Positions 19,344-54,751 of a stretch of 64,000 bases of DNA are shown here, one piece after another. A program made the translations under genes and the position numbers. The stretch lies in NCBI RefSeq assembly GCF_055900595.2, contig NZ_CM148325.1. One strand, given 5' to 3'. Below the pieces are notes generated by a model. The model was not told the origin of the DNA. It ran no database searches and was given only the letters and a program-made list of their open reading frames with translations. Every line of letters begins with the position of its first letter. Within the stretch, counting starts at the first letter, position 1.

Positions 19344-19784
19344 TTTAGGTTGTGGTGAGTGGGGGTTGTGTTTAGGGCCGGGGAGAGTTGGGGTATGACT
19401 ACGAAAGCCCGCTCTCCTGCGACCACTTTTATCATAGGAGTGTGGAAGTGCTTTTCCATCAATCGCGATGACGTCTTTGTCATCTGAAGAATGACATTCA
19501 CGCATCCGGTTAATAAAGCATTCGTGAAATTTTGCAGGACTGATACATGATACAACTCTGGCAATAGTATCGTGAACAGGAATACCATTTTCAAAATCAC
19601 CATATTGCTTCAAAAAATCGAGATGAGTTTCCCCGAAATCCTCTATATATTCCCAACCTTCTGCTCCAGAAATAACGGCACAAATAGTCAACAGTAGAAT
19701 ATCCGATAATTTATGTTCCACTTTCCAGGCTTGTCTGTAATCGGGGATAATAGAAATATGTTCCATCAATTTTTTAAGTTCCAT
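19296..19784 (-). pseudogene. H-repeat (ISAs1-family) transposase, N-terminal fragment
   Basis: [80 protein letters not shown]... matches Rhs-associated H-repeat protein N-terminus; C-terminal two-thirds absent. Confidence 0.75.
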
Positions 19785-19968
19785 TTTGTTCTCCTTAATT
19801 ATGTAAGGAGTATTTGATCATGTATAAGCAATAAAAAACAGCTTCAGGTAATGAGGAATATCTCAATTTTTAAACATAAAATGCGAATTGTTTAGTACAA
19901 AAAAGCAGCGTTACGTGATCTTTCCCTGCTAAGGCCGGTAAGGCTAACCTCGTCTGGTTCCGCCACCC

Positions 19969-20487
19969 GTGAGATTAGCCTCTCCGTTGGCGGTATTAAA
20001 ATCACTTAGTGGAGGTTGCCTTATGGCTACAATCCTCCCCCCTGATTATGATTTACTGTCCATTCCTTTCAGTTCTGCCACCGATTTAACTGACCTGGCC
20101 GATCACTGCGATCGTTTCGCTGAAACTCTTATAGAGTGTCACGATCCGGCGCTGAAAATGGCGCTATATGGGCGTCTTCGCGCCTGTCTCGCCATTCTGC
20201 ATCCCACGCTGAACGAGCCGATTCCGTCCCATCTGGTGGACAGCCTGACGCTTGATGATTTGCCGACGTCGTTTCCGCGCTTTGAACCAGATGCAGAACA
20301 GTTGTGTCAGTATTGCCTGACGTTGCTCCAGCTTCTGACGGAACGGGCGCAGGGATCGGAAACACAACAATCCCTTACTGGATTACTGTGCGAACTGGTC
20401 TGGTTCTTTGCAGCAAAACTGAAAGCACCACGCTGGCTGCATACTGCTGATGGCGTGGTCTTTATCGAAGATCTGATCGAACCATAA
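19969..20487 (+). CDS. Hypothetical protein (no recognisable family), within Rhs element tail
   Basis: 172-aa ORF; probable start at internal MATILPPDYDL; no motif recognised. Confidence 0.4.
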   Translation: MRLASPLAVLKSLSGGCLMATILPPDYDLLSIPFSSATDLTDLADHCDRFAETLIECHDPALKMALYGRLRACLAILHPTLNEPIPSHLVDSLTLDDLPTSFPRFEPDAEQLCQYCLTLLQLLTERAQGSETQQSLTGLLCELVWFFAAKLKAPRWLHTADGVVFIEDLIEP

Positions 20488-20653
20488 GATGGATATCCCC
20501 GGATTCTCGCCTGTAAGTGCAGGCAGAGATCCGGGAGAATACCCGCATACATTCAGCGCAAACATTCCTGCCAGACCATCCGCGCGCGGTTCCTCTGTCA
20601 GTCACAGTCCGCATCGTAGATAAACTGATGTTCCGTAGCTGATGTAATTAAAC

Positions 20654-21268
20654 TCATATATCCGTAAGTGATTTAAAATCAGCAACACGGGCAAATTCCT
20701 TTTTCGGTAGTACCAAAGACTCTAGTCGTGCTGATAGCAGTTCAACCATAAACTCTGCCCACCCTAAGTCAAATTCATCACAAAGAGGTCCACGACTTTC
20801 ATTTATAACTATTTTCCAATTACAATTTTTTTCTAATTTCCAGAATAAAACCTCTCCACTATCAGTTATACCAAACGGGAGAACACCATCTTCCGATGGA
20901 AAAAAATTGTATGGGAATTTTTCGCCATGAAGTTTGACCTCAGCAAGAGCCGAATTTATTTCCTTTGCTTGCTCGATTAAATTAATATATGGATTATCAA
21001 CAAACGGGCTAAAGATCCAAAGGAACCCATTTATTCGTCCTATCCCATATTCATCAATAAAGGATTTATAATCTTCTGGCAACAAAATACCTAGCCTAGA
21101 CTCTGCTTTCCGCCAGTCATTGACGCCATTATAATCGTCAATAAGGTTTTTATAATCATTAGACAATTGAATACCGAGTTCAGATTCTAACCGTCCCCAA
21201 TAAGTAGTTATTTTCTCATTAATAACTGCTGGTGGCGGAATTATTTTCTTTATCATATCAATAGACAT
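20654..21268 (-). CDS. SMI1/KNR4 (SUKH-type) family protein, candidate Rhs immunity protein
   Basis: 204-aa ORF with features remembered for SMI1/KNR4 immunity proteins; located downstream of the Rhs C-terminal toxin. Confidence 0.6.
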   Translation of the reverse strand: MSIDMIKKIIPPPAVINEKITTYWGRLESELGIQLSNDYKNLIDDYNGVNDWRKAESRLGILLPEDYKSFIDEYGIGRINGFLWIFSPFVDNPYINLIEQAKEINSALAEVKLHGEKFPYNFFPSEDGVLPFGITDSGEVLFWKLEKNCNWKIVINESRGPLCDEFDLGWAEFMVELLSARLESLVLPKKEFARVADFKSLTDI

Positions 21269-21313
21269 TGTCAGTTCCCTATTGGATTCAGTATAGAATC
21301 ATTAAGCACAGTT

Positions 21314-21511
21314 TCAATTTTCATAATCCAGAATTGGCTCATCTAATGCTTCTGAATAACGAAGAAGATTCTCTCGCAAATCTTCAAGGGATTCACCTCG
21401 CGGAGACACTGGTTTTTCACTATATCCACAAACCTTACCTGCTTCATTATAATATACCTCATAGATAGCAAGCTCCCCTTTAAATTGCATAACTCTATAA
21501 TTCCAAGTCAT
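21314..21511 (-). CDS. Small hypothetical protein immediately downstream of the Rhs toxin; candidate cognate immunity protein
   Basis: 65-aa ORF starting 9 nt after the Rhs stop; position typical of an Rhs immunity gene; weak HicB-like look. Confidence 0.45.
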   Translation of the reverse strand: MTWNYRVMQFKGELAIYEVYYNEAGKVCGYSEKPVSPRGESLEDLRENLLRYSEALDEPILDYEN

Positions 21512-21519
21512 ATCTCCTC

Positions 21520-22383
21520 CTATTTTTTATGATAATCAACAATATCATGAATAATTATTTCATTTTCTGTTTCAGAATATAAAACTCTATCTCCCCCTCT
21601 TCCTTTACCACTTCCTGGTAAGTCGGCTGCTGATTTCCCTTTTAAATCACCATGTAAAGAATGCTGGTTTTTTCCTGACTCACCACGAGAAAGCATAATT
21701 TTAATAGCATCATAGGCTTCAGCTTGTTTTCCTTTGAGCGCATCCCCCTTCTTCGCCGCCAAATCCTCCTCTATGATGGTTTTCATTTGGGTAGGACATT
21801 TTTCACCTGCCAGCCCCCACGGGTCGCACCAACCCACCGGATTATGCACATAAGACTGCGTATCCAGCCCGCCGCTCAGTTTCAGCGGATCCTGGCTTAA
21901 ATACTGCCCCGTCCCGGCGTCGTAGTAGCGGTGTAAATTATACCACAGCCCGCTCTCCTCATCCTGCCACTGGCCCATGAAGCCCGCATCGCAGCTTTCA
22001 CGCTCACTGTCCGGCGAGTCGTTTGCAGCCAGCCCCCACAGGCTGCGGTGTTTCGTCCACACCTTCCGCCCGTTCGCGCAGTACATCTCCTGCGGCGCGC
22101 CGTCCGGGCCGGTCACTACCGGGTAAAAATAACTTCTGTCATCATTCGCCGCCCGGCTTTCCTTCGCCAGCAGTTCAAATCTGCCCCCGGTAGTGCCACT
22201 GCTCCCGTAGCGCCGGGCTGCCGTCTGCATAGCGTTTCTCACTTGTGGAAAGCGCCATCCCAAGCCACTGGTAGCGTACTTCGCTGATGGCGTGCGGGCT
22301 TCGTTTCCACGCTGCCCGGATAACGCAGCGTTTTGCCGTTCGTCTGCCAAAGGCGTCGTAGCTGTACTGCCACACTTCACCAT
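21520..22383 (-). CDS. rhs: Rhs C-terminal segment: end of Rhs core (DPxGL motif) plus YoeB/RelE-like toxin domain; out of frame with the upstream Rhs ORF
   Basis: Contains GLWYNLHRYYDAGTGQYLSQDPLKLSGGLDTQSYVHNPVGWCDPWGL (Rhs core end) followed by ~95 aa ending ...GKGRGGDRVLYSETENEIIIHDIVDYHKK resembling YoeB/RelE toxins; overlaps the main Rhs ORF in another frame over 22175-22383. Confidence 0.7.
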   Translation of the reverse strand: MVKCGSTATTPLADERQNAALSGQRGNEARTPSAKYATSGLGWRFPQVRNAMQTAARRYGSSGTTGGRFELLAKESRAANDDRSYFYPVVTGPDGAPQEMYCANGRKVWTKHRSLWGLAANDSPDSERESCDAGFMGQWQDEESGLWYNLHRYYDAGTGQYLSQDPLKLSGGLDTQSYVHNPVGWCDPWGLAGEKCPTQMKTIIEEDLAAKKGDALKGKQAEAYDAIKIMLSRGESGKNQHSLHGDLKGKSAADLPGSGKGRGGDRVLYSETENEIIIHDIVDYHKK

Positions 22384-25300
22384 CTGGTGTCTTTATCTCG
22401 CGCAGACGGTCGAAGTCATCCCAGCGGTAGCGCCACTCCTGCGGGCGAAAGCCGAGTTTTTGGTCGGTGCGCTTTGTCACCCTGCCGCAGGCGTCGTATC
22501 CGTAGCGGCTGTCACCGGCCTGGTTCACACATTCATTATTGTACTGGTGCTGCGACAGAATACCGTTTATCCGGCTTTCCGCTATCTGCTCATTGACCGT
22601 ATAGCGGTAGCGCTCTTCCTGTGCCGGACCACTGGCGTCCAGCCGCAGTACGCTGGTTATCTGGTCGCGGGCATCGTACTGGTAGCGCGTTTCCCGCTCC
22701 GTACGCGTTTTCGACCACACTTCATGCCCGGTCAGGCGGCCCGATTTATCCCACGCGTAACGGTGTTCGCCCAGCGGTCGCCACGATGCCACGCTCTGGT
22801 GGCTGCCTGCCAGCCGCTCTGCGCCCTGTTTTTGCCATGCCGTACGTCCGCAGGTGTCGTATCCCTGCTCCTGCATATAGACCGCATGGTTCAGCGGCGT
22901 CTGCGCCAGCCAGCTTTCCTCATCCTCCGGGCGGTAACGCCGATTTTTTTCAAGGCCCGCGGGGGAATGACTGAAGTCCATCCGGTGACCGTTGCTGCGG
23001 TAGCCCGTCAGAATGCCCGAAGCGTCGTATTCTCTCTGTGTTTCCCCGTCCGGCGTTGTGGTGCCAGTCAGCCTTCCGGCTTCGTCGTAACGGTACTCCG
23101 TGCGCTGGCCGTCCTGCTCTTCCGCCACCAGACGATGGCGTTCGTCCCACTCCAGTTTTACCTCACTGGTGAGCGTATAGCCTGCTTCACTGCCGTCGCT
23201 GCGCTCATACACCTGCGCACTCACCATCCGGTCATGGCGGTCGTACTGATAGCTGAGTTTCTGATGCTCGCCGCTGATGGTCGCCACCCGGCCATATTCA
23301 TCCCTCGCATAGCGCCATACGCTGCCGTCCGGGCGGTGTTTTTCTGCCAGCCGGCCCTGTTCATCACGGATATAGACGGTTCTGCGTCCCGACCAGTCCT
23401 CCTCCCCGGCCATCTGGCCCGCCGCATCGTAGTACAGCCGCCACTGCTGGTTGCCGCTGCGCGTAAGCTGCGTGAGCCTTGCGGCACCATCGTAGTCGCA
23501 AAGTATCCGCTGCCCGCCCGCGTCCTCCACTTCCCGCAGCAGGTCAAATGCCCCGTGGCGGTAGCGCGTGGTCTGGCCCATGGCCCCGGTGTGGAGAGTG
23601 ATTTTGCCTTCACCATCATAGCGGAAGGTTTCAGCGCCACCGTCGGCCCGGATTACTGCGCTCAGTTTCTCATGCGGGTTATCGGCACCGGGGCGGTACT
23701 GCCAGTTCACGCTGCGCCCTTCAGCATCCACCAGCCCCGTCAGCCGCAGCCAGCGGTCTTCCGTGTAATGGGTTGTGCGGCCTTCACCATCGGTATGGGA
23801 AAGCAGGCCACCGTGAGCGCTGTAGCTCCACTGTTCGTGGCTGCCGTCCGGGTACTGTATCTCCTTGAGCAGACCGTCTTCGGTATGACGGTACTGCCAG
23901 TTCTGCCCGTTCACCTCCCGGCGGATAAGATTCCCTTCGGCGTTATAATGGTACGCCGCCGTGGTGCGGTGGTCCTGGTATGCCGTAACCTGACCAAATT
24001 CATCCCACTGCCATTCACGTTTACGCCCGTTCTCGTCCGTTTCGCTCAGGATACGCCCGGCATAATCGCGTTTTATCTGAGTAATGCGCCCACCCGGCTG
24101 GCGAATACACAGCGGCTGGTCGTATTCGTTACGCTCCCATTCAGTGATACGCCCCAGCGGGTCACGCTGTTTTTTCAGCAGCCAGGACTCATCGAACCAC
24201 AGCGTGGTGGTGGCTCCGGTGGCATCGGTGTAATCGGTTCTGCGCTCCTCCGGGAAGTAGCGGAAGGTGTCGTTATACAGGCCTTCCTGTGTGCCTGTGG
24301 CAGTCACCCGGCCTTCATCGTCATAGCGCAGGTGGAAGTGCGTCGGGCCGTTGTCGCGCCAGGAACTCAGCCAGCCCTGTTCGGTATAGGTATAATGCAA
24401 CGCGCCATTAAAGCGGGTCTGCACATCGCTCAGTCGCTGTTCATCGCCGTGACTGATATAGTCATAGCGCACCAGCTCGCTGCCGTCTGACTCGTCGATC
24501 ACACGGAATATCTGCCCCTGCGGGCCACACATCACCCGCAGATTCAGGCCGCTGCTGTGGGTTACGTTTGTCAGTTGGCCGATGACGTTATAGGTGAAGC
24601 GAATTTCGTTGCGGTTGCGGTCTTTTATTGCCGTTAGCCGCAGGCGGCGTGCGCCGGGGGAGATGGGCGTAAAGATATAACCCAATTGTGAGTATTCGTC
24701 GAAGATAATAGCCCGCTCACGGTTTCCCAGGAGGCGATAGTGCGGGACAAGCAGGTTACGGCTACTGTATGGTGCCTGCTCCGTGGAGTAGGCCAGACAT
24801 AGCCCCTCAGCATCAAAGTAGGTGACGTTTTTCCCGTTGCAATCGAACTCCAGAAACTGCGACCAGTTACACAACCAGCGACTGCCCAGCAAACCACTAA
24901 CCGGATGTCGGCCTGTATAAGCACGTTTCAGCGTCAGCGGTAAAATATGCGGATAGTTGAAATCAGTTCGGTAATCCAGATATTCACCCGTTCCGGTATC
25001 CACCGGATCGCTGAACCCCTGACTGATACGCTCATTTGCGGCTCTGTTTAACTGCTTTGCTCCCCATAGAGCTGTTAACACTTCCAGACTTGATACAACA
25101 GATTGCTCCAGCACCGTCATATCGGCATTAATCGGCCCATACTGTCCGGTCGTCTTATCAGCCGTAATGGTTTTACATCCTTCCTGAATAACTGCCGAGC
25201 AGGTAATTTTATGGCCCTTACGCGCCAGCGGCAGGCTGTTGACGGAAATAATTTTGCTCCCTTCCACTATCTGTGGAGGAGGACTGCCCGGATCCTTACT

Positions 25301-25942
25301 ACATTCAACCGGATCAGTGACGCGAGCTACCGCTTTTCCTTCAAAAAAAACATTAGGAGAGCCTTCTACAATCTGTCCGGTTTCAGATGCCCAGCGGGAA
25401 CCAATTACCATCGCTGCGCCACCGACAAATCCACCAGCTAATCCCCCGGCCCCGGCAGCAACGGTGGCAGCCAGCACACCCAATGCCGCGCCCCCTGTAG
25501 CGACAACCAGAGCTCCCACTGCAATCCCTACAATAAGTCCACCGATTAACCCACCAATAGCACCCAGAAAGGAATTGTTATGAACAATGTGATGACCCAC
25601 ACACGCAGGTATATCTGTTGGGCCGGAAACTGCGTGATCTTTACCCCAGGTATCCATGAACCAGTCACCTGCTTTGGTGCCCAGCCATCCCCCCAGCATC
25701 CCGCCAACCAGTCCGGCAATCAAAGGGCCTCCAAATCCTGCAACAGCTTTGGCTATTCCGGCTGCACAGGTGTTTGCTGCTGCGGCTGCCAGTCCTACCT
25801 TTGCCGTTGCTCCCACCATACTGACAGCCATTATTCCAGTACTGGCAATATGTCCTGTGGTAGCAATACTCTCCACTGTTTCGGCATTACTGTCCCGTTG
25901 ATCCAGCTCCGCTAACTTCTCCTGCGCGCTTTTTTCCGTCAT
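22175..25942 (-). CDS. rhs: prePAAR-TMD-PAAR-Rhs T6SS effector, main ORF (YD-repeat shell)
   Basis: 1255-aa ORF: N-terminal region with Gly-rich transmembrane helices and PAAR-like segment (GSPNVFFEGKAVARVTDPVEC), then many YD repeats; stop at 22175 where another frame continues. Confidence 0.8.
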   Translation of the reverse strand: MTEKSAQEKLAELDQRDSNAETVESIATTGHIASTGIMAVSMVGATAKVGLAAAAANTCAAGIAKAVAGFGGPLIAGLVGGMLGGWLGTKAGDWFMDTWGKDHAVSGPTDIPACVGHHIVHNNSFLGAIGGLIGGLIVGIAVGALVVATGGAALGVLAATVAAGAGGLAGGFVGGAAMVIGSRWASETGQIVEGSPNVFFEGKAVARVTDPVECSKDPGSPPPQIVEGSKIISVNSLPLARKGHKITCSAVIQEGCKTITADKTTGQYGPINADMTVLEQSVVSSLEVLTALWGAKQLNRAANERISQGFSDPVDTGTGEYLDYRTDFNYPHILPLTLKRAYTGRHPVSGLLGSRWLCNWSQFLEFDCNGKNVTYFDAEGLCLAYSTEQAPYSSRNLLVPHYRLLGNRERAIIFDEYSQLGYIFTPISPGARRLRLTAIKDRNRNEIRFTYNVIGQLTNVTHSSGLNLRVMCGPQGQIFRVIDESDGSELVRYDYISHGDEQRLSDVQTRFNGALHYTYTEQGWLSSWRDNGPTHFHLRYDDEGRVTATGTQEGLYNDTFRYFPEERRTDYTDATGATTTLWFDESWLLKKQRDPLGRITEWERNEYDQPLCIRQPGGRITQIKRDYAGRILSETDENGRKREWQWDEFGQVTAYQDHRTTAAYHYNAEGNLIRREVNGQNWQYRHTEDGLLKEIQYPDGSHEQWSYSAHGGLLSHTDGEGRTTHYTEDRWLRLTGLVDAEGRSVNWQYRPGADNPHEKLSAVIRADGGAETFRYDGEGKITLHTGAMGQTTRYRHGAFDLLREVEDAGGQRILCDYDGAARLTQLTRSGNQQWRLYYDAAGQMAGEEDWSGRRTVYIRDEQGRLAEKHRPDGSVWRYARDEYGRVATISGEHQKLSYQYDRHDRMVSAQVYERSDGSEAGYTLTSEVKLEWDERHRLVAEEQDGQRTEYRYDEAGRLTGTTTPDGETQREYDASGILTGYRSNGHRMDFSHSPAGLEKNRRYRPEDEESWLAQTPLNHAVYMQEQGYDTCGRTAWQKQGAERLAGSHQSVASWRPLGEHRYAWDKSGRLTGHEVWSKTRTERETRYQYDARDQITSVLRLDASGPAQEERYRYTVNEQIAESRINGILSQHQYNNECVNQAGDSRYGYDACGRVTKRTDQKLGFRPQEWRYRWDDFDRLREIKTPDGEVWQYSYDAFGRRTAKRCVIRAAWKRSPHAISEVRYQWLGMALSTSEKRYADGSPALREQWHYRGQI

Positions 25943-28680: not shown

Positions 28681-29067
28681 TTAAAATCTAGCCCCTGGTG
28701 GCCAAAAAATATAAGTAATCACTCTCCATTGCCCGTCTTTATAATGAAACCAACATGTCAGATTCAAATCCCCCTGCAAATTCCAGAACATTTCCTTAAT
28801 AGGAACATTTTGAAATTCAGGATCTGTTATGCGATAAGTTTGATTCAAGCCGATATAATACTCACCAACAAATTTATATCGTGGCCTCACGAACTCATGA
28901 GCAGGCGGCCCATATTTCTTCATAAAAAAGATGTCATTACTTCCATCATGTATATCATTTTCTTCATAATATTTGGTGGATTGAGCAACTGCAGAAGGCG
29001 AGAAAACATTCACTGTAGTTATGTAAGTTATTGAAAGGAAAATCACTATAATACAGAAAAATTTCAT
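28681..29067 (-). CDS. Putative periplasmic immunity protein for the adjacent HExxH effector
   Basis: 128-aa ORF with N-terminal signal-like hydrophobic segment; overlaps effector stop; C-terminal half conserved with the paralog at 30776-31147 (PIKEMFW..GDLNLTC.FHYKDGQWRVI.Y.FWPPGA.F). Confidence 0.6.
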   Translation of the reverse strand: MKFFCIIVIFLSITYITTVNVFSPSAVAQSTKYYEENDIHDGSNDIFFMKKYGPPAHEFVRPRYKFVGEYYIGLNQTYRITDPEFQNVPIKEMFWNLQGDLNLTCWFHYKDGQWRVITYIFWPPGARF

Positions 29068-29765
29068 TTGGTTACATTCAATAAAGTAAATTTAGTTTCA
29101 GGCATTATGACATTCAACGTTATAGTTGCGTTTTTAAGGTATCGTTCCCGAAGCTCCATTCCCACATTCATCAACCCACTAATATCTCCAACATACGGAG
29201 ACGAAGAATCATAATCATCATCTAAGTAACCAAGTACATGTCCGGCTTCATGAGGTATATTTACTTGCAACGTATTATTACAGTTAATACATTTCGCTAC
29301 TTTTTCCAGGTCCGCTGAATCAACATGAACCGTACTGTTTTTAAAATCAACATATGTTCTTAAATCAGCACCAGGCAAAACCTTTGTTGCAATAACCAAC
29401 CAGTCTTCATTCTGAGATGCAGAAATTATTCTTACATCAAAAGGCAAAGCTTTACCCTGAAATTTTTTAGCGAACTCAGATTCACCGGAAACAGAATAAG
29501 TTATTTTCCCATTCCATGCCTGCTGAACAGATAAATATATCGCTCGCATAAAAATAGCTTTTTCCCATATAATCCAGTCATCTGTAACGGTATTATCTTT
29601 ATACCACTCATACTTCCATCTTATCACAGCCGTAATCGAACCAGTATTTTGATTTAATAAATACGTCCTCCTACCATCCTTATGTATAATGATATCGCCA
29701 TCAATATTTGTTTTTTCATAGTATTCGGCCAGCAAACTATTCTCATCATATTTAAGCTTGGTCAT
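29064..29765 (-). CDS. Putative T6SS effector with HExxH zinc-metallopeptidase-like motif
   Basis: 233-aa ORF, no signal peptide, contains NIPHEAGHVLGY; followed by overlapping signal-peptide ORF; sits between vgrG copies. Confidence 0.6.
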   Translation of the reverse strand: MTKLKYDENSLLAEYYEKTNIDGDIIIHKDGRRTYLLNQNTGSITAVIRWKYEWYKDNTVTDDWIIWEKAIFMRAIYLSVQQAWNGKITYSVSGESEFAKKFQGKALPFDVRIISASQNEDWLVIATKVLPGADLRTYVDFKNSTVHVDSADLEKVAKCINCNNTLQVNIPHEAGHVLGYLDDDYDSSSPYVGDISGLMNVGMELRERYLKNATITLNVIMPETKFTLLNVTK

Positions 29766-29831
29766 TTTACTCTCATTAAATACTAATTGTTTGTATCGAA
29801 AATATTATCTGGAAAAATATTATTTTATATA

Positions 29832-31160: not shown

Positions 31161-31882
31161 TCACAAAAAATTAGAACCCGGAACCATTCTATTTAACCGC
31201 TCAATGACATTTCCCATATAACGAGAGCGCAGTTCCATACCAATATTCATTAACGCACTGGCATCCCCGGAGAATGGTGTAGTTGCTTTATCTGCATCAT
31301 CACTATAGTATTCATCGGTAAGATATCCAATAATATGCCCAAGCTCATGAGACAGCCCCATTTGCTTAGAGCAAACTTTTGATGAACCAAGACATTTAGC
31401 TGCTGCAACTATATCTTTAGAGTCAAGTTCAACGTATCGACTATTCCAGACAATGGAACTCTGACGAAAACTATTTGGATCATCATTATCAATTTTAAAC
31501 ACCACCACATCCCAATACCCATGACGATCAGTCTGAATTATTTCTATTGTGAAAGATAAATCCTTACCATTAAACTTACTGACAAACTCAGACTTCCCAG
31601 AAACGGATAAAAAAACCTTATTATTCCATGTTTGATTAATGACAAAAATAACTTTTCCATGAAAGGCTTTTTTTCCATATCTGTCCAATCAGTTTTTGCA
31701 TCCCATCTTTTTATCCAATTATATTTCCATCTCAGCAACAATGAGATTGCACCATTTTCACGGTCAATTCTTAAATCTCCCCAGGCATCATTGTCCCTGA
31801 TATATCGTTTATCCAGCATTAAGTCGTCATAAGCATCGTATGCCTGCTGAATAGCCTCATCATGAGAGTCACCCATGTTCAC
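31161..31882 (-). pseudogene. HExxH-motif putative effector, paralog of 29064-29765, apparently frameshifted
   Basis: Two overlapping ORFs (31544-31882 N-terminal part, 31161-31688 C-terminal part with HELGHIIGY and LMNIGMELRSRY); frame break near a T/A homopolymer at ~31660-31690. Confidence 0.6.
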
Positions 31883-37796: not shown

Positions 37797-38083
37797 TATT
37801 GTTCAGAACTCCATGCGAGAATCAGTAATAGCAAAATGCCGCAAGCTGAAAAAATCCTTCCAGTACGGGCTACTGAAAGAAAATAAAGAGCAATCTGAAC
37901 AATTATCAAAATAAAATAAATCAACATTTTGATTATTTCTCTGTTCCCATTTCCCTGAGGCAACGTTGTCATTGAAGGATCCATATCCTGCATCCATTGA
38001 TACTCATTCCCGGAAAAAAGCATGATGATGATCAGACCCATAATGAATAACAACCATCCTGATATCTGAATTATTCTTCTCAC
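37796..38083 (-). CDS. Small predicted membrane protein (2-3 TM helices), unknown function
   Basis: 95-aa ORF dominated by hydrophobic helices; between the 227-aa ORF and tssM. Confidence 0.45.
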   Translation of the reverse strand: MRRIIQISGWLLFIMGLIIIMLFSGNEYQWMQDMDPSMTTLPQGNGNREIIKMLIYFILIIVQIALYFLSVARTGRIFSACGILLLLILAWSSEQ

Positions 38084-42524: not shown

Positions 42525-42753
42525 TTCCTTATTTAGAATTACTTAAAAATAACCTCTGATTTATCTGTACATCTGGATACAGGTAAACCATTGCCGTACA
42601 GAACCCCCTCTCCTTAATTTCAGAAGAACAGAAGGCTGTATAATTTCCGGTACTGAAATACCGGGAAGATATTTATTTACCTTATAAATAAATCATCAAA
42701 ACAATAATTTTAGCCCTGCGTTTCTCACTCAATATATTCACAAAATAAATAAA

Positions 42754-44899: not shown

Positions 44900-45190
44900 T
44901 TAAAAATCATACGCAGAGAGTATTTTTATAATCTCTTTGTTTTCTTTGTACTTTTCCCGCAGCACAGGGAGTGATTTCTTCGCTGGAGGACACCAGGTAT
45001 CAACCCCCTTTTCGATGTCTCTTTTATCCTTCTCTGGTAAAGAACTGTCCCATTCACCAGCAAGATGCTGGCACATTTCCGCATTACTCAGAAAATGCTG
45101 CACATCCTGTGGTAAAGACGGTTCCCCCTGAACACTGAAAGCGAACATCATTAACAGGAATGTCCACAACACCGGATAACGAAATGTCAT
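44900..45190 (-). CDS. Small predicted secreted protein of unknown function within the T6SS operon
   Basis: 96-aa ORF with signal peptide (MTFRYPVLWTFLLMMFAFSVQG) and paired cysteines; between clpV and tssB. Confidence 0.45.
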   Translation of the reverse strand: MTFRYPVLWTFLLMMFAFSVQGEPSLPQDVQHFLSNAEMCQHLAGEWDSSLPEKDKRDIEKGVDTWCPPAKKSLPVLREKYKENKEIIKILSAYDF

Positions 45191-45408
45191 ACTTAATGTC
45201 CATCAATTGACCAGTGCATGAGATATGCTCTGGCGGGAGGGCGATATGTTGCAGAGATACTGCCCCTTGCACGCGCATTACCAAGCGCGCGCAAAAAATT
45301 TTCTACCGATGCACGAAAAGTCCCCTGCAAATCATTAGTGGAAGAACTTACAGGAAAGCGACTGACCCACATTGCGCCACTTAATTCTTTTGCCATAAGG
45401 ATGCTCCA

Positions 45409-48042
45409 TTAATCCGTTTCAAAAATAATCTGTTCATCCTCATCAACACGAATGCGGATTTGCGTGATGGCCGTTTTCTCTGTCATCGCCTGCAACCAAT
45501 AACGGGACAGTTGTGGGAGGATATGTTGTTCGATATAGCCGATGAGCAAACGAGCGCCGGTTTCGTGCATCGGGCAGCGCGACACAATATGCGTAATCAG
45601 TTCATCGCCATACACCAGTGAAACGCCATGCTGCTCCGCCATCCGAGCCATCAATCTGCCAAGATGCAGGCGGGCAATAACACCACGCGCGGTCTCATCC
45701 AGCGGTAAATAAGGAATAACCGTCACACGCCCCAGGAAAGCCGCCGGGAAGTGTTTACGTAACTCCGGCATTAACGCCTCTTTTAGTCCTGCCGAATCAG
45801 GCATCAGCGCCGGATCCTCACAGAGCTGGCTGATAAGTTCCGCCCCCGCGTTAGTAGTCAACAACAGCGTGGTATTTTTGAAATCGATGTGGACACCTTC
45901 GCCGTCCTCCATCGCGCCTTTATCGAATACCTGGTAGAACAACTCGTGGACGTCGTGATGGGCTTTTTCAATTTCATCCAACAGCACTACACTCCAGGGG
46001 TGACGGCGTACGGCTTCCGTCAACACACCGCCTTCGCCATAGCCGACGTAGCCGGGCGGCGCGCCTTTCAGCGTGGAGACGGTGTGAGACTCCTGAAACT
46101 CGCTCATGTTGATGGTGATCAGGTTCTGCTCACCGCCGTAAATAGATTCCGCCAGCGCCAGCGCGGTCTCGGTCTTGCCGACACCGGACGGCCCGGCCAG
46201 CAGAAAGACGCCCATCGGTTTACGCGGGTCGCCTAACCCCGCCCGCGCGGTCTGAATACGCTCGCCAATCTGCGCCAGCGCATCCATCTGCCCGGTAACA
46301 CGCTGCGCCAAACGGGTGGGCAATTCCAGTATCTGACTGGCTTCATCTTTCACCATCCGTCCGGCGGGAATACCGGTCCAGTCAGAGACAATCTCTGCCA
46401 CCACGGTTGCACTGACTTCCGGGTACACGACGGGGTTTTCACCCTGCCAGCCTCTTAATGCCGTTTCTGCCTGTTGTAGAGTGATTTCGTCGCGCTCGCC
46501 AGGCGCTGCGCCGCGTTGCTCCTGTAAACTGCGAACCAACTCCAGTTCCTGCTGCCACCGCGCTTCGGTGTCAGAAAGATCGGCATTAAGCGATATAATC
46601 CGCGCCGTCAGTACATCGCCCCGCTCCGAGCGGATACCCATTTTTTCCTGCTTTAATAACAACTCCTGCTCCAGTTCGGCAGCGTTGAGCTGCTGGCGCA
46701 GATACTGGACTCTCGCAGGCGGGGTATGCAGCGACAGCGCTACACGGGCCGCCGCCGTATCCAGCAGGCTGATGGCCTTATCCGGTAGTTGCCGGGCCGG
46801 AATGTAACGGTGAGAAAGCTGTACGGCGGCACGCACGGCCTCATCAAGGATCAGCACGTCATGGTGTTTTTCAAGCGTGGTGACTAACCCGCGTACCATC
46901 TCAACAGCCGCAACCTCTTCCGGCTCAGCAACCTGCAATACCTGAAAACGCCGGGTCAGCGCCGGATCCTTTTCGATATGGCGTTTGTACTCGCTCCAGG
47001 TGGTTGCGCCGATGGTGCGCAGGGTGCCACGCGCCAGCGCCGGTTTCAGCAGGTTGGCAGCATCCCCCGTACCGGATGTACCACCAGCGCCCACCAGCGT
47101 GTGAACTTCATCAACAAAAAGGATCACCGGCTGCGGCGAGCGCGCGGCCTCTTCCAGCAACGCTTTCAGGCGGGATTCAAATTCACCCTTCATGGAGGCC
47201 CCAGCCAGCAGCGCTCCAACATCCAGTGACAGCAATCGCACGTTACGCAGTGACGGCGGTACTTCCCCCCCGGCAATCGCCAGCGCGAATCCTTCCACCA
47301 CTGCCGTTTTCCCGACCCCCGCTTCGCCGGTCAGTAGCGGGTTGTTCTGGCGACGGCGCAGCAGAATATCCGTCATAGTACGGATCTCGTGTTCGCGACC
47401 GGTGACCGGATCGATATTGCCTTCACGGGCCAGCGCAGTCATGTCCTGGCAGTATTTCGCCAGCGCGGATTTGCTTCCGGTTGATTCGCCGGCAAAGACC
47501 TGGCTAGCTTCCCCCGGTACTGCAGAATTTAAATCCGAGCCGTCATAAGGCATTTCTGTTAATTCAGGAGATGAAGTGATTAAAGACGGAAGAATATCTA
47601 ATAGTTCATCTACCGGTAGCTCTGCCAATGGCGCACAAATATTTTTTAACACCCGACACAATTCTGGCGTGGTTAACCAGGCAAGTAATAACCATCCACT
47701 ACGAATTTTTTGATCGCCAAAGCGGATACTTGCTAACATCCAGGCTTTTTCAACTGAAAGATCGATATGATGGGAAAAATCGTTAATTACACTCGCTCCG
47801 GCAGGCAATATATTCAATTGCTGAATTAACGCCTTCTCAACATCAGCAGATGTTATTTGATAATGTCGAAGCACATTGTGAATGTCATTCTCTGGTTGTT
47901 GTATTAACTGATGCAACCAATGCGTCAGTTCGACATAAGGGTTAGCGCGTAATTTACAGAACGTCGTCGCAGATTCCAAAGATCTAAACAAAGATTTGGT
48001 TAGCTTTCCATACAGTGCACTGCGCGAAACAGGAGTGTCCAT
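45409..48042 (-). CDS. clpV: T6SS AAA+ ATPase ClpV (TssH)
   Basis: 877-aa ORF with two AAA+ modules (Walker A GEAGVGKTA and GPSGVGKTE). Confidence 0.95.
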   Translation of the reverse strand: MDTPVSRSALYGKLTKSLFRSLESATTFCKLRANPYVELTHWLHQLIQQPENDIHNVLRHYQITSADVEKALIQQLNILPAGASVINDFSHHIDLSVEKAWMLASIRFGDQKIRSGWLLLAWLTTPELCRVLKNICAPLAELPVDELLDILPSLITSSPELTEMPYDGSDLNSAVPGEASQVFAGESTGSKSALAKYCQDMTALAREGNIDPVTGREHEIRTMTDILLRRRQNNPLLTGEAGVGKTAVVEGFALAIAGGEVPPSLRNVRLLSLDVGALLAGASMKGEFESRLKALLEEAARSPQPVILFVDEVHTLVGAGGTSGTGDAANLLKPALARGTLRTIGATTWSEYKRHIEKDPALTRRFQVLQVAEPEEVAAVEMVRGLVTTLEKHHDVLILDEAVRAAVQLSHRYIPARQLPDKAISLLDTAAARVALSLHTPPARVQYLRQQLNAAELEQELLLKQEKMGIRSERGDVLTARIISLNADLSDTEARWQQELELVRSLQEQRGAAPGERDEITLQQAETALRGWQGENPVVYPEVSATVVAEIVSDWTGIPAGRMVKDEASQILELPTRLAQRVTGQMDALAQIGERIQTARAGLGDPRKPMGVFLLAGPSGVGKTETALALAESIYGGEQNLITINMSEFQESHTVSTLKGAPPGYVGYGEGGVLTEAVRRHPWSVVLLDEIEKAHHDVHELFYQVFDKGAMEDGEGVHIDFKNTTLLLTTNAGAELISQLCEDPALMPDSAGLKEALMPELRKHFPAAFLGRVTVIPYLPLDETARGVIARLHLGRLMARMAEQHGVSLVYGDELITHIVSRCPMHETGARLLIGYIEQHILPQLSRYWLQAMTEKTAITQIRIRVDEDEQIIFETD

Positions 48043-48374
48043 CTGTTACACCTAATGATGTAATAACATATAAATGATACATAAAAATAACTGTATCGAT
48101 TAAAACTTCTAATTAATAGAATTATCAAAAAGGCAGAATAAAACAATGATGCATATCACAGAACACAATGTAATATAGCAGGTAGTATCTTTTTCATGGT
48201 GATATTCAATAGAGCAAGCCAATTTCATACGCACCGTGAATATATTAAATTGTAAATCGCCACTATATATTTCCGTGAAAACTTATATTGATAAAGTAAA
48301 TTGATCAGCTTTGCTTATCTAAAAATTTAGAAAACTTATTCTTTTGAAAGAAACACTCTACACAGTGATACGCA
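48043..48374. promoter_or_regulatory. AT-rich divergent promoter region between the clpV-led and tagH-led T6SS operons
   Basis: ~330-bp strongly AT-rich non-coding stretch between divergently oriented operons; one GATC site near 48300. Confidence 0.5.
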
Positions 48375-49286
48375 ATGAAACCAAATATTACGTGGGAACT
48401 CCAAAAAATACAGGCGCATGGGATCGCCGATAACACAATTTACGCGACTGAAGGAACACAAATTATCTTCACCGTTACCTCTCCCTGGATTCCTGTTTTT
48501 GATGTGAATGATGATGTAAAGATTGCGCTCAGACTGACCCGCCACGAAGAAGCATGGTGGATTATCAATCAGTCTACCGAATATTGCTGTACGGTAAACG
48601 ACCAGATTGTGGAACCTCATCACCGTATGCGTCTGAATGAAGGCGACCTGATAGAATGGGGATTATCTTCATGGTGCCTTGTGCATGGCAATCCATCATC
48701 TCCGAACCTAAGCGCAGTAAAGACATCGCAGACTGCCACCACGTCGGAAACAATAACCGAATATCTGGATCTGGATTGGTTCAGGCAGCAGCATCTGACA
48801 TCACAAAATCCATTCGATATCATTCCTGTTCATGGAGCCTCCTCCACCGGAGAAGATGCGGAAAAAGAAAATGCCCTGACCCGACTTTATCAGGAATACC
48901 GCGAAGCGTTGTTATCTCCCGAACAAGATCTTCATCGCCATGCTGATCCTTTTCCCTTTAACGAAGAACCCTCCTCGCAGGATCTGGATTCATTGCGTGA
49001 CCTGGTCACCGAAGCCGAGACATTGCAGGATATGGTCACTGGCGGGTTAAGCATTGACGCTATTCTCAATGTACTGGATGCCACCGGCGAAGATGAAACT
49101 ATCTGGCCTGTCGAAAACACTCCCCCTGACATCCTGCATTTACTTTCCCCGGAATACGCCCCGGAAACAGCGCATAACACCGTTCTGCCCGACCTGACAC
49201 GCAAAGAGCATCGCATCATTGGCATTGACAGCCATTACCGGATAAACCCGGCACAACACGGAGATACCTCTCATGATAAACAATAA
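48375..49286 (+). CDS. tagH: T6SS FHA-domain protein (TagH-like)
   Basis: 303-aa ORF with FHA-like N-terminal segment. Confidence 0.65.
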   Translation: MKPNITWELQKIQAHGIADNTIYATEGTQIIFTVTSPWIPVFDVNDDVKIALRLTRHEEAWWIINQSTEYCCTVNDQIVEPHHRMRLNEGDLIEWGLSSWCLVHGNPSSPNLSAVKTSQTATTSETITEYLDLDWFRQQHLTSQNPFDIIPVHGASSTGEDAEKENALTRLYQEYREALLSPEQDLHRHADPFPFNEEPSSQDLDSLRDLVTEAETLQDMVTGGLSIDAILNVLDATGEDETIWPVENTPPDILHLLSPEYAPETAHNTVLPDLTRKEHRIIGIDSHYRINPAQHGDTSHDKQ

Positions 49287-54674: not shown

Positions 54675-54751
54675 TGGCGGAACGGACGGGACTCGAACCC
54701 GCGACCCCCTGCGTGACAGGCAGGTATTCTAACCGACTGAACTACCGCTCC
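54675..54751 (-). tRNA. aspV: tRNA-Asp (GUC)
   Basis: Exact reverse complement of the E. coli tRNA-Asp sequence as remembered; downstream of dnaQ; T6SS island abuts its 3' end. Confidence 0.95.

Follow-up and report, generated by a model that had tools for sequence, protein, structure and literature searches.

Between two divergently transcribed T6SS genes, the window (the whole 64-kb stretch of E. coli DNA that was analyzed) contains 332 non-coding bases at 48043-48374, bounded in the ORF list by the start codons of the two divergent ORFs at 48042 and 48375. The sequence-only reading had described about 330 bp of AT-rich non-coding DNA here; this description was correct, and its coordinates were exact. 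The GC content of the gap is 0.277 (27.7%), compared with 0.52 across the 64 kb and 0.55-0.64 in the flanking T6SS genes. The gap is the 332-bp stretch with the lowest GC content in the window; as low a value is found in 0.036% of all 332-bp segments, every one of which overlaps the gap. It holds a single GATC, at 48303-48306, and a repeat search of the gap returned only short direct and inverted repeats at chance level.

The gene on the left is tssH/clpV, as its product matches TIGR03345 with 1221 bits (cut-off 885). It leads an operon that continues with two small ORFs, tssB, tssC, hcp, tssJKL, tssM, tagF and vgrG. The gene on the right is tagK, with a match to the NF033418 equivalog of 545 bits (cut-off 200), and it leads the order tagK-tagJ-tssE-tssF-tssG-tssA. 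This operon had been called tagH-led, a name that must be replaced. The Pfam FHA match of the protein reaches 20.1 bits, under the 20.7 cut-off, and since the FHA hit needed for TagH is sub-threshold, the gene is not tagH. For both tssH and tagK, these names agree with the ones that RefSeq gives on an E. coli chromosome of 99.8% identity (L001). The coordinates of the genes and of the elements discussed below are collected in Table 1.

Table 1. Genes flanking the gap and elements observed, matched or predicted within it.
Feature	Coordinates	Strand	Remarks
tssH/clpV, leads leftward operon	45409..48042	-	877-aa ORF; Pfam AAA_2/ClpB_D2-small; NCBIfam TIGR03345
AT-rich divergent intergenic region, tssH/clpV to tagK	48043..48374	.	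332 bp, GC 0.277
Shine-Dalgarno AGGTG of clpV	48049..48053	-	read from sequence; within conserved leader segment
Best 19-bp Fur consensus match GATAATTCTATTAATTAGA	48108..48126	-	13/19; overlaps predicted clpV -10 and start
Predicted weak -10 AATTCT, clpV promoter	48118..48123	-	17 bp from TTGTTT; predicted start ~48111
Conserved block AAAACAATGAT-N4-ATCA	48140..48158	.	once in each of 19/19 orthologous gaps
Predicted -35-like TTGTTT, clpV promoter	48141..48146	-	abuts dyad; 18/19 orthologs
CRP-like 16-mer AATGATGCATATCACA	48145..48160	.	8/10 to TGTGA-N6-TCACA
Predicted -10 TAGTAT, tagK promoter	48183..48188	+	predicted start ~48195; dyad center ~-42.5
Second -10-like TATATT, possible second tagK promoter	48241..48246	+	conserved in alignment
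tagK, leads rightward operon	48375..49286	+	303-aa ORF; NCBIfam NF033418 TagK equivalog

The E. coli copy of the gap is present in about 2% of complete genomes: a match of at least 95% identity to the 601 bases around it was found in 120 of 5426 complete E. coli genomes, in all cases on the chromosome. The best match (99.8%) has the order vgrG...tagF-tssM...tssL-tssK-tssJ-hcp-tssC-tssB-(two small genes)-tssH on one side of the gap and tagK-tagJ-tssE-tssF-tssG-tssA on the other, followed after tssA by tRNA-Asp, dnaQ and rnhA. Mapped from the annotated E. coli record, this tRNA-Asp (aspV) lies directly 3' of tssA at about 54675-54751 and marks the island boundary, and a second tRNA-Asp with the start of an rRNA operon is found near the end of the window, from about 62899. 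The two small minus-strand ORFs between tssH and tssB (44900-45190, 96 aa, and 45193-45396, 67 aa) are annotated by RefSeq as hypothetical proteins and have no Pfam family; the 96-aa ORF gives a far sub-threshold thioredoxin-like match (StoA_CxxC, 29 bits vs. a cut-off of 210). Further low-GC stretches (0.30-0.33) occur at 19550-21570, 28760-29830 and 31390-31725 in the vgrG/effector part of the island, where the matching RefSeq record has truncated vgrG-like pseudogenes. Additional H-NS targets, or effector cassettes of recent origin in the island, may be located in these stretches.

Homologues of TagK occur only in Escherichia, Citrobacter, Enterobacter and Salmonella. The TagK of the window is 54-56% identical to Salmonella TagK/SciF over its full length, and the ClpV N-termini of the window and its orthologs also align. 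As TagK, ClpV, gene order and aspV location agree, comparative sequence analysis identifies the locus as the E. coli copy of the SPI-6-type T6SS at tRNA-Asp (aspV). The gap between sciF (tagK) and sciG (clpV) in SPI-6 of S. Typhimurium has the same flanking genes, gene order and aspV insertion site as the gap studied here, and measures 367 bp with a GC content of 0.26-0.27, compared with 332 bp and 0.28 in the window. The two share the conserved block described below, the hexamer TAnnAT at +36 and the conserved clpV leader, but can barely be aligned outside the conserved blocks. Low GC content is kept in all 18 orthologous gaps (0.23-0.30), which are 330-423 bp long.

Demonstrations of H-NS and Fur binding come only from the Salmonella gap. 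There, a clpV promoter fragment is shifted by H-NS in EMSA, bile salts and arginine act on fusions to the clpV promoter via c-di-GMP and H-NS, and deletion of fur raises clpV (PMC10657408). Direct binding and repression by Fur at the same promoter is attributed to Wang 2019 (PMC10657408). Both Salmonella operons are almost silent in an RNA-seq supplement, with TPM of 1-5. By analogy, the gap of the window is very probably an H-NS-silenced divergent promoter region. The general interpretation of the sequence-only reading, in which a nucleoid protein and a metal regulator act on a divergent control region, therefore holds by way of the Salmonella ortholog, where H-NS binds the promoter region of both operons and Fur represses clpV, while the motif scans of the window itself (see below) did not bear it out.

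The view that the main promoters of the system are located here may overstate the role of the gap. Salmonella has separate hcp1, tae4 and vgrG promoters (PMC10657408), and the window has an AT-rich gap upstream of hcp. This second non-coding gap, between tssC and hcp at 42525-42753 (~230 bp; lowest 332-bp GC content 0.319), probably holds an internal hcp promoter like the separate hcp1 promoter of Salmonella. The promoter on the clpV side is thus unlikely to be the sole promoter for the leftward genes.

Scans of the gap as a single sequence yielded little. A scan for consensus promoters and terminators found no sites within the gap. The best scores of a sigma-70 PWM scan of the gap (8.9 and 9.4) fell short of the median that shuffles gave for theirs (11.4), and no promoter can thus be called from this one sequence. 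Comparison of orthologs gave a different picture. The set consisted of the window and 18 other loci from Escherichia clades, Enterobacter, two Citrobacter species, Salmonella and metagenome contigs. Most of the gap is barely alignable between genera, and one block stands out. It is present in every gap, with TGAC in place of TGAT in one ortholog and ACGA in place of ACAA in the flank of one. Its dyad, TGAT-N4-ATCA, lies at 48147-48158 with its center at 48152.5, and is the most conserved 12-mer of the gap, above the ribosome-binding region. In an alignment of 13 sequences the longest invariant run is nine columns (48141-48149), a length reached in none of 5000 column shuffles. The block lies 105-109 nt from the clpV ATG (138 nt in C. 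koseri, where 30 bp are inserted), and its separation from tagK ranges between 226 and 315 nt among the 19 gaps. The spacer of the dyad is GCAT in all Escherichia and mostly ACAG in the other genera, with the half-sites kept, which is the pattern expected of a dimer that does not read the spacer. Elsewhere in the 64 kb the block does not recur; the only two further TGAT-N4-ATCA hits, at 38023 and 46110, are intragenic and lack the flank. The dyad sequence was not found in print in the open-access literature. The block is likely a functional protein-binding site. The earlier statement that no specific operator can be asserted by eye is correct as far as the eye goes, but it no longer applies after comparison, since the dyad is conserved across genera.

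Some variation at and around the dyad is worth recording. All 14 non-Escherichia orthologs (L005-L011, L013-L020) have a Dam GATC in the dyad spacer, aligned to 48151-48156 and mostly within ACAGATCA, while the five Escherichia versions of the dyad read GCATATCA and have no GATC; the Salmonella gap and the E. coli window differ in this respect. In the interval from the dyad to TAATAT, Salmonella (L008/L011) and C. koseri (L010) have TTAGCAACTAA and CTAGCAATTAAG, which are absent from the E. coli window. They resemble the SlyA palindrome TTAGCAAGCTAA. In one contig (L016 1-1162) the gene upstream of the gap is labelled as an RHS-repeat protein, and its first 120 codons are the ClpV N-terminus; either the label is wrong or the contig is chimeric. 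Readings of the block as a sigma-54, LexA, NsrR, ArgR or PhoP site were dropped by eye for wrong spacing or lack of conservation.

A conserved segment might also encode a small protein or a small RNA. A 41-codon minus-strand ORF (48109-48234) spans the block, and ...SVICIIV(L/S)F... can be translated from several orthologs. However, the starts, stops and lengths of such ORFs vary (29-74 aa), Salmonella has no such ORF, and the block, unlike its drifting flanks, is invariant at each base, even in third codon positions. A small ORF across the block was therefore rejected for its inconsistent ends and invariant wobble positions. For RNA, the Rfam covariance models gave no match at E<=1 in 47800-48600, and the predicted leader RNAs fold no better than shuffles (z = +0.98 and -0.48), for which reason a structured leader was rejected too. 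Together, we regard a coding or small RNA function of the segment as very improbable.

A simpler account is that the gap has no dedicated operator and is AT-rich foreign DNA coated by H-NS, whose conserved bases are core promoter and leader elements. H-NS binding tracks AT content in ETEC ChIP (PMC4287617), and TTGTTT in the block may be taken for a -35 element. A scan of the gap with the H-NS motif TCGATAAATT gave four weak matches, each with two mismatches. The AT content of the gap explains these four hits, and the H-NS motif scan that had been proposed for this region thus returned only what AT content predicts. A core sigma-70 element would not, however, consist of a symmetric TGAT-N4-ATCA in which the spacer changes and the half-sites are kept, and the dyad exceeds the ribosome-binding region in conservation. 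An account without an operator is therefore improbable.

To compare candidate factors, a CRP PWM was made from 64 in-vivo sites found by ETEC ChIP-seq (PMC4287617 Table 1). The 16-mer of the window, AATGATGCATATCACA, has a score of 8.29, above 21 of the 64 real sites. This score is reached in 0.8% of gap shuffles, and two sites in the 64 kb score at least 8.29, the dyad included. The other of these, TGTGATGACCCACACA at 25588-25603 (8.55), is inside a 1255-codon ORF on the minus strand (22175-25942). The Enterobacter and Citrobacter dyads score 7.3-8.8. In Salmonella, where the right half-site is TCAGG instead of the TCACA of the window, the score is 1.85, under all 64 real sites, and locus L017 scores 3.5; CRP can therefore not explain the conservation across all genera. 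Additionally, the invariant AAACAA flank belongs to neither the CRP nor the FNR consensus, and neither profile accounts for it unless it is the -35 of the predicted leftward promoter. By these scores CRP is the best single candidate for the E. coli dyad. As the protein that binds the conserved block, CRP can be named only tentatively, and FNR, Fur or another factor on the dyad is possible.

The dyad might be an FNR site of the TTGAT-N4-ATCAA type in a class II position, in which case the T6SS would be switched on in the anaerobic gut. The invariant TGAT-N4-ATCA is the exact FNR core, the window agrees with the consensus in 8 of 10 positions, and the -41.5/-42.5 geometry discussed below is typical of FNR promoters. 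FNR also directly activates a Klebsiella T6SS promoter (PMC11754592) and APEC vgrG. However, in a PWM from 63 ChIP-bound sites (PMC3688515 Table S6), the window scores 7.61, under all 63, a reference set that was itself selected above a threshold. This score is reached by 6.9% of gap shuffles, and six sites in the 64 kb at least equal it. The orthologs score 5.9-8.5, most of them under the lowest reference site and three ortholog types just at the low edge of the reference set, and both outer positions are off consensus (A...C or A...G). Myers 2013 (PMC3688515) lists numerous FNR motifs that coincide with enrichment for H-NS, IHF or Fis and show no FNR peak in vivo, and such peakless motifs would suit an H-NS-covered gap. 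Weighing these points, we consider FNR an unlikely reading of the dyad.

If the block were a Fur operator, Fur-Fe2+ would bind the block and the clpV start and repress clpV when iron is plentiful, and the specific signal would be iron limitation rather than carbon or oxygen status. This agrees with the increased clpV expression in a Salmonella fur mutant and with the direct binding to the clpV promoter that PMC10657408 reports, citing Wang 2019. AATGAT occurs in the block, which agrees with the Fur consensus of 19 bp in 11 positions, and the best match of the window overlaps the predicted clpV -10 and start. Our scans did not confirm a Fur box. Matches of 11-13/19 are typical of shuffled sequence: the best match in the gap is 13/19, shuffles average 12.2 for their best, and 29% of them reach 13. 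In eight orthologs, the observed best was equalled by 24-86% of shuffles. The best sites also differ in position among the orthologs and lie away from the conserved block. Motif scanning for Fur, likewise suggested by the sequence-only reading, thus gave no box above chance. Moreover, TGAT-N4-ATCA has neither the 7-1-7 nor the hexamer-repeat spacing of Fur sites. We find it unlikely that Fur accounts for the block. Footprints in Salmonella, reportedly obtained by Wang in 2019 for Fur and by Brunet in 2015 for H-NS, might already assign the conserved block.

Several hexamers lie at constant distances from the dyad. Counted from the first base of the dyad, an invariant TAnnAT stands at +36 in all 19 orthologs, with no intervening indels; it is TAGTAT in the window and TAATAT in most other orthologs. 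On the clpV side, the single exception to TTGTTT among the 19 orthologs is TCGTTT. The predicted leftward -10 follows the pattern nAnnCT, in which the A of the second position and the T of the sixth are kept in all orthologs, and the spacer between -35 and -10 is 18 bp rather than 17 in one Salmonella copy. AATTCT is missing from the top 12 leftward candidates of the sigma-70 PWM scan. A start near 48111 would place the dyad at -41.5 and give clpV a leader of about 69 nt. The clpV leader block at 48047-48058 has a conservation of 0.87. For tagK, the second hexamer is TATAAT in five orthologs, and 48240-48251 has a mean conservation of 0.80. That these elements are conserved and keep their spacing was observed directly, as were the coordinates, composition, gene identities and orthology above, and from conservation and spacing we infer the promoters and their start sites. 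With the starts as predicted, the dyad at -41.5 and -42.5 would be placed as in class II promoters of CRP/FNR-family regulators. The lack of a strong consensus sigma-70 promoter and the weak -35 and -10 elements fit activator dependence.

Collectively, our results somewhat favor a model in which the gap is an H-NS-silenced shared region with a CRP/FNR-type operator between two activator-dependent promoters. From this region the clpV-led operon would be transcribed leftward and tagK-tagJ-tssEFGA rightward. The extreme AT-richness would let H-NS nucleate and polymerize over the gap and block both promoters, so that the two operons are silent under ordinary conditions, as found in Salmonella and inferred for E. 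coli. Signals that loosen H-NS would then give access to RNA polymerase and to the regulator that binds the dyad. The dyad TGAT-N4-ATCA with its AAACAA flank would be the operator of a dimeric regulator of the CRP/FNR type, most CRP-like in E. coli, with its identity and its activating sign deduced from motif and geometry. The rightward promoter would have TAGTAT as -10, a start near 48195 and the dyad at -42.5, and the leftward promoter would be TTGTTT-N17-AATTCT with a start near 48111 and the dyad at -41.5. A single bound dimer could turn on both operons once H-NS is displaced, and on the clpV side Fur may contribute control by iron. Several points count against this model. The leftward -10, AATTCT, is a poor match, one class II site cannot serve two RNA polymerases simultaneously, and AT-rich DNA gives many chance promoter-like hexamers. 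Precedents for such regulation are a Klebsiella T6SS promoter under the direct action of FNR, Fur and ArgR (PMC11754592) and a T6SS intergenic region bound by CRP in EAEC 042 (PMC12360894). The more specific proposal that the dyad is a shared class II operator, where one CRP-type dimer fires both divergent promoters after H-NS is lifted, is possible, if doubtful. If it is true, the sheath/ClpV/membrane-complex operon and the baseplate operon would be coupled to carbon or redox status, and the AAACAA flank together with the non-CRP half-site of Salmonella would point to a factor or composite element undescribed for SPI-6-type systems.

SPI-6-type T6SSs help enteric bacteria to kill gut competitors, and their silence in the laboratory hampers study. 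Position, orthology and composition make the gap a member of the SPI-6-type tssH/tagK regions, and such control regions are ordinary and have been studied before. The region is known in Salmonella, and the E. coli copy appears unstudied. New here is a precise conserved candidate operator, the 19-bp block, with two predicted promoters as a direct target. Through the block and the promoters, the particular activator or repressor that acts alongside H-NS could be identified. Were a single site to drive both operons, this would explain how production of the two halves of the machine is coordinated.

The proposed geometry has a counterpart in malX-malI, where the Busby laboratory reportedly found one CRP dimer site between back-to-back promoters, at about -41.5 and -43.5. 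The arrangement is the same as proposed for the window, but there it has been demonstrated experimentally, while here it is deduced from conserved hexamers and spacing. Among T6SS promoters, that of EAEC sci1 (T6SS-1) is said to have overlapping Fur boxes and Dam GATC sites, according to Brunet and colleagues in 2011. Like the gap studied here, it is an AT-rich E. coli T6SS promoter under global regulators, and the non-Escherichia orthologs of the gap resemble it in having GATC inside the dyad. It differs in belonging to another T6SS class and in being a single-direction promoter, and its arrangement of GATC over an operator is absent from the window, where the dyad has no GATC and the best Fur match is at chance level. 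The T6SS cluster of EHEC O157:H7 is presumably located in the aspV region. It has an H-NS-repressed bidirectional promoter between tssB and hcp3 (PMC13141884), and thus likewise a divergent T6SS control region in E. coli. Compared by description, the cluster type differs, and tssB and hcp3 flank the region instead of tssH and tagK. Finally, the tssB promoter of Klebsiella pneumoniae T6SS-1 is bound by ArgR, FNR and Fur (PMC11754592). As proposed for the window, global gut-signal regulators converge on this enterobacterial T6SS promoter, one of them a protein of the CRP/FNR family; it belongs to another T6SS class and is a different promoter, and it was studied by binding assays, whereas our proposal derives from sequence.
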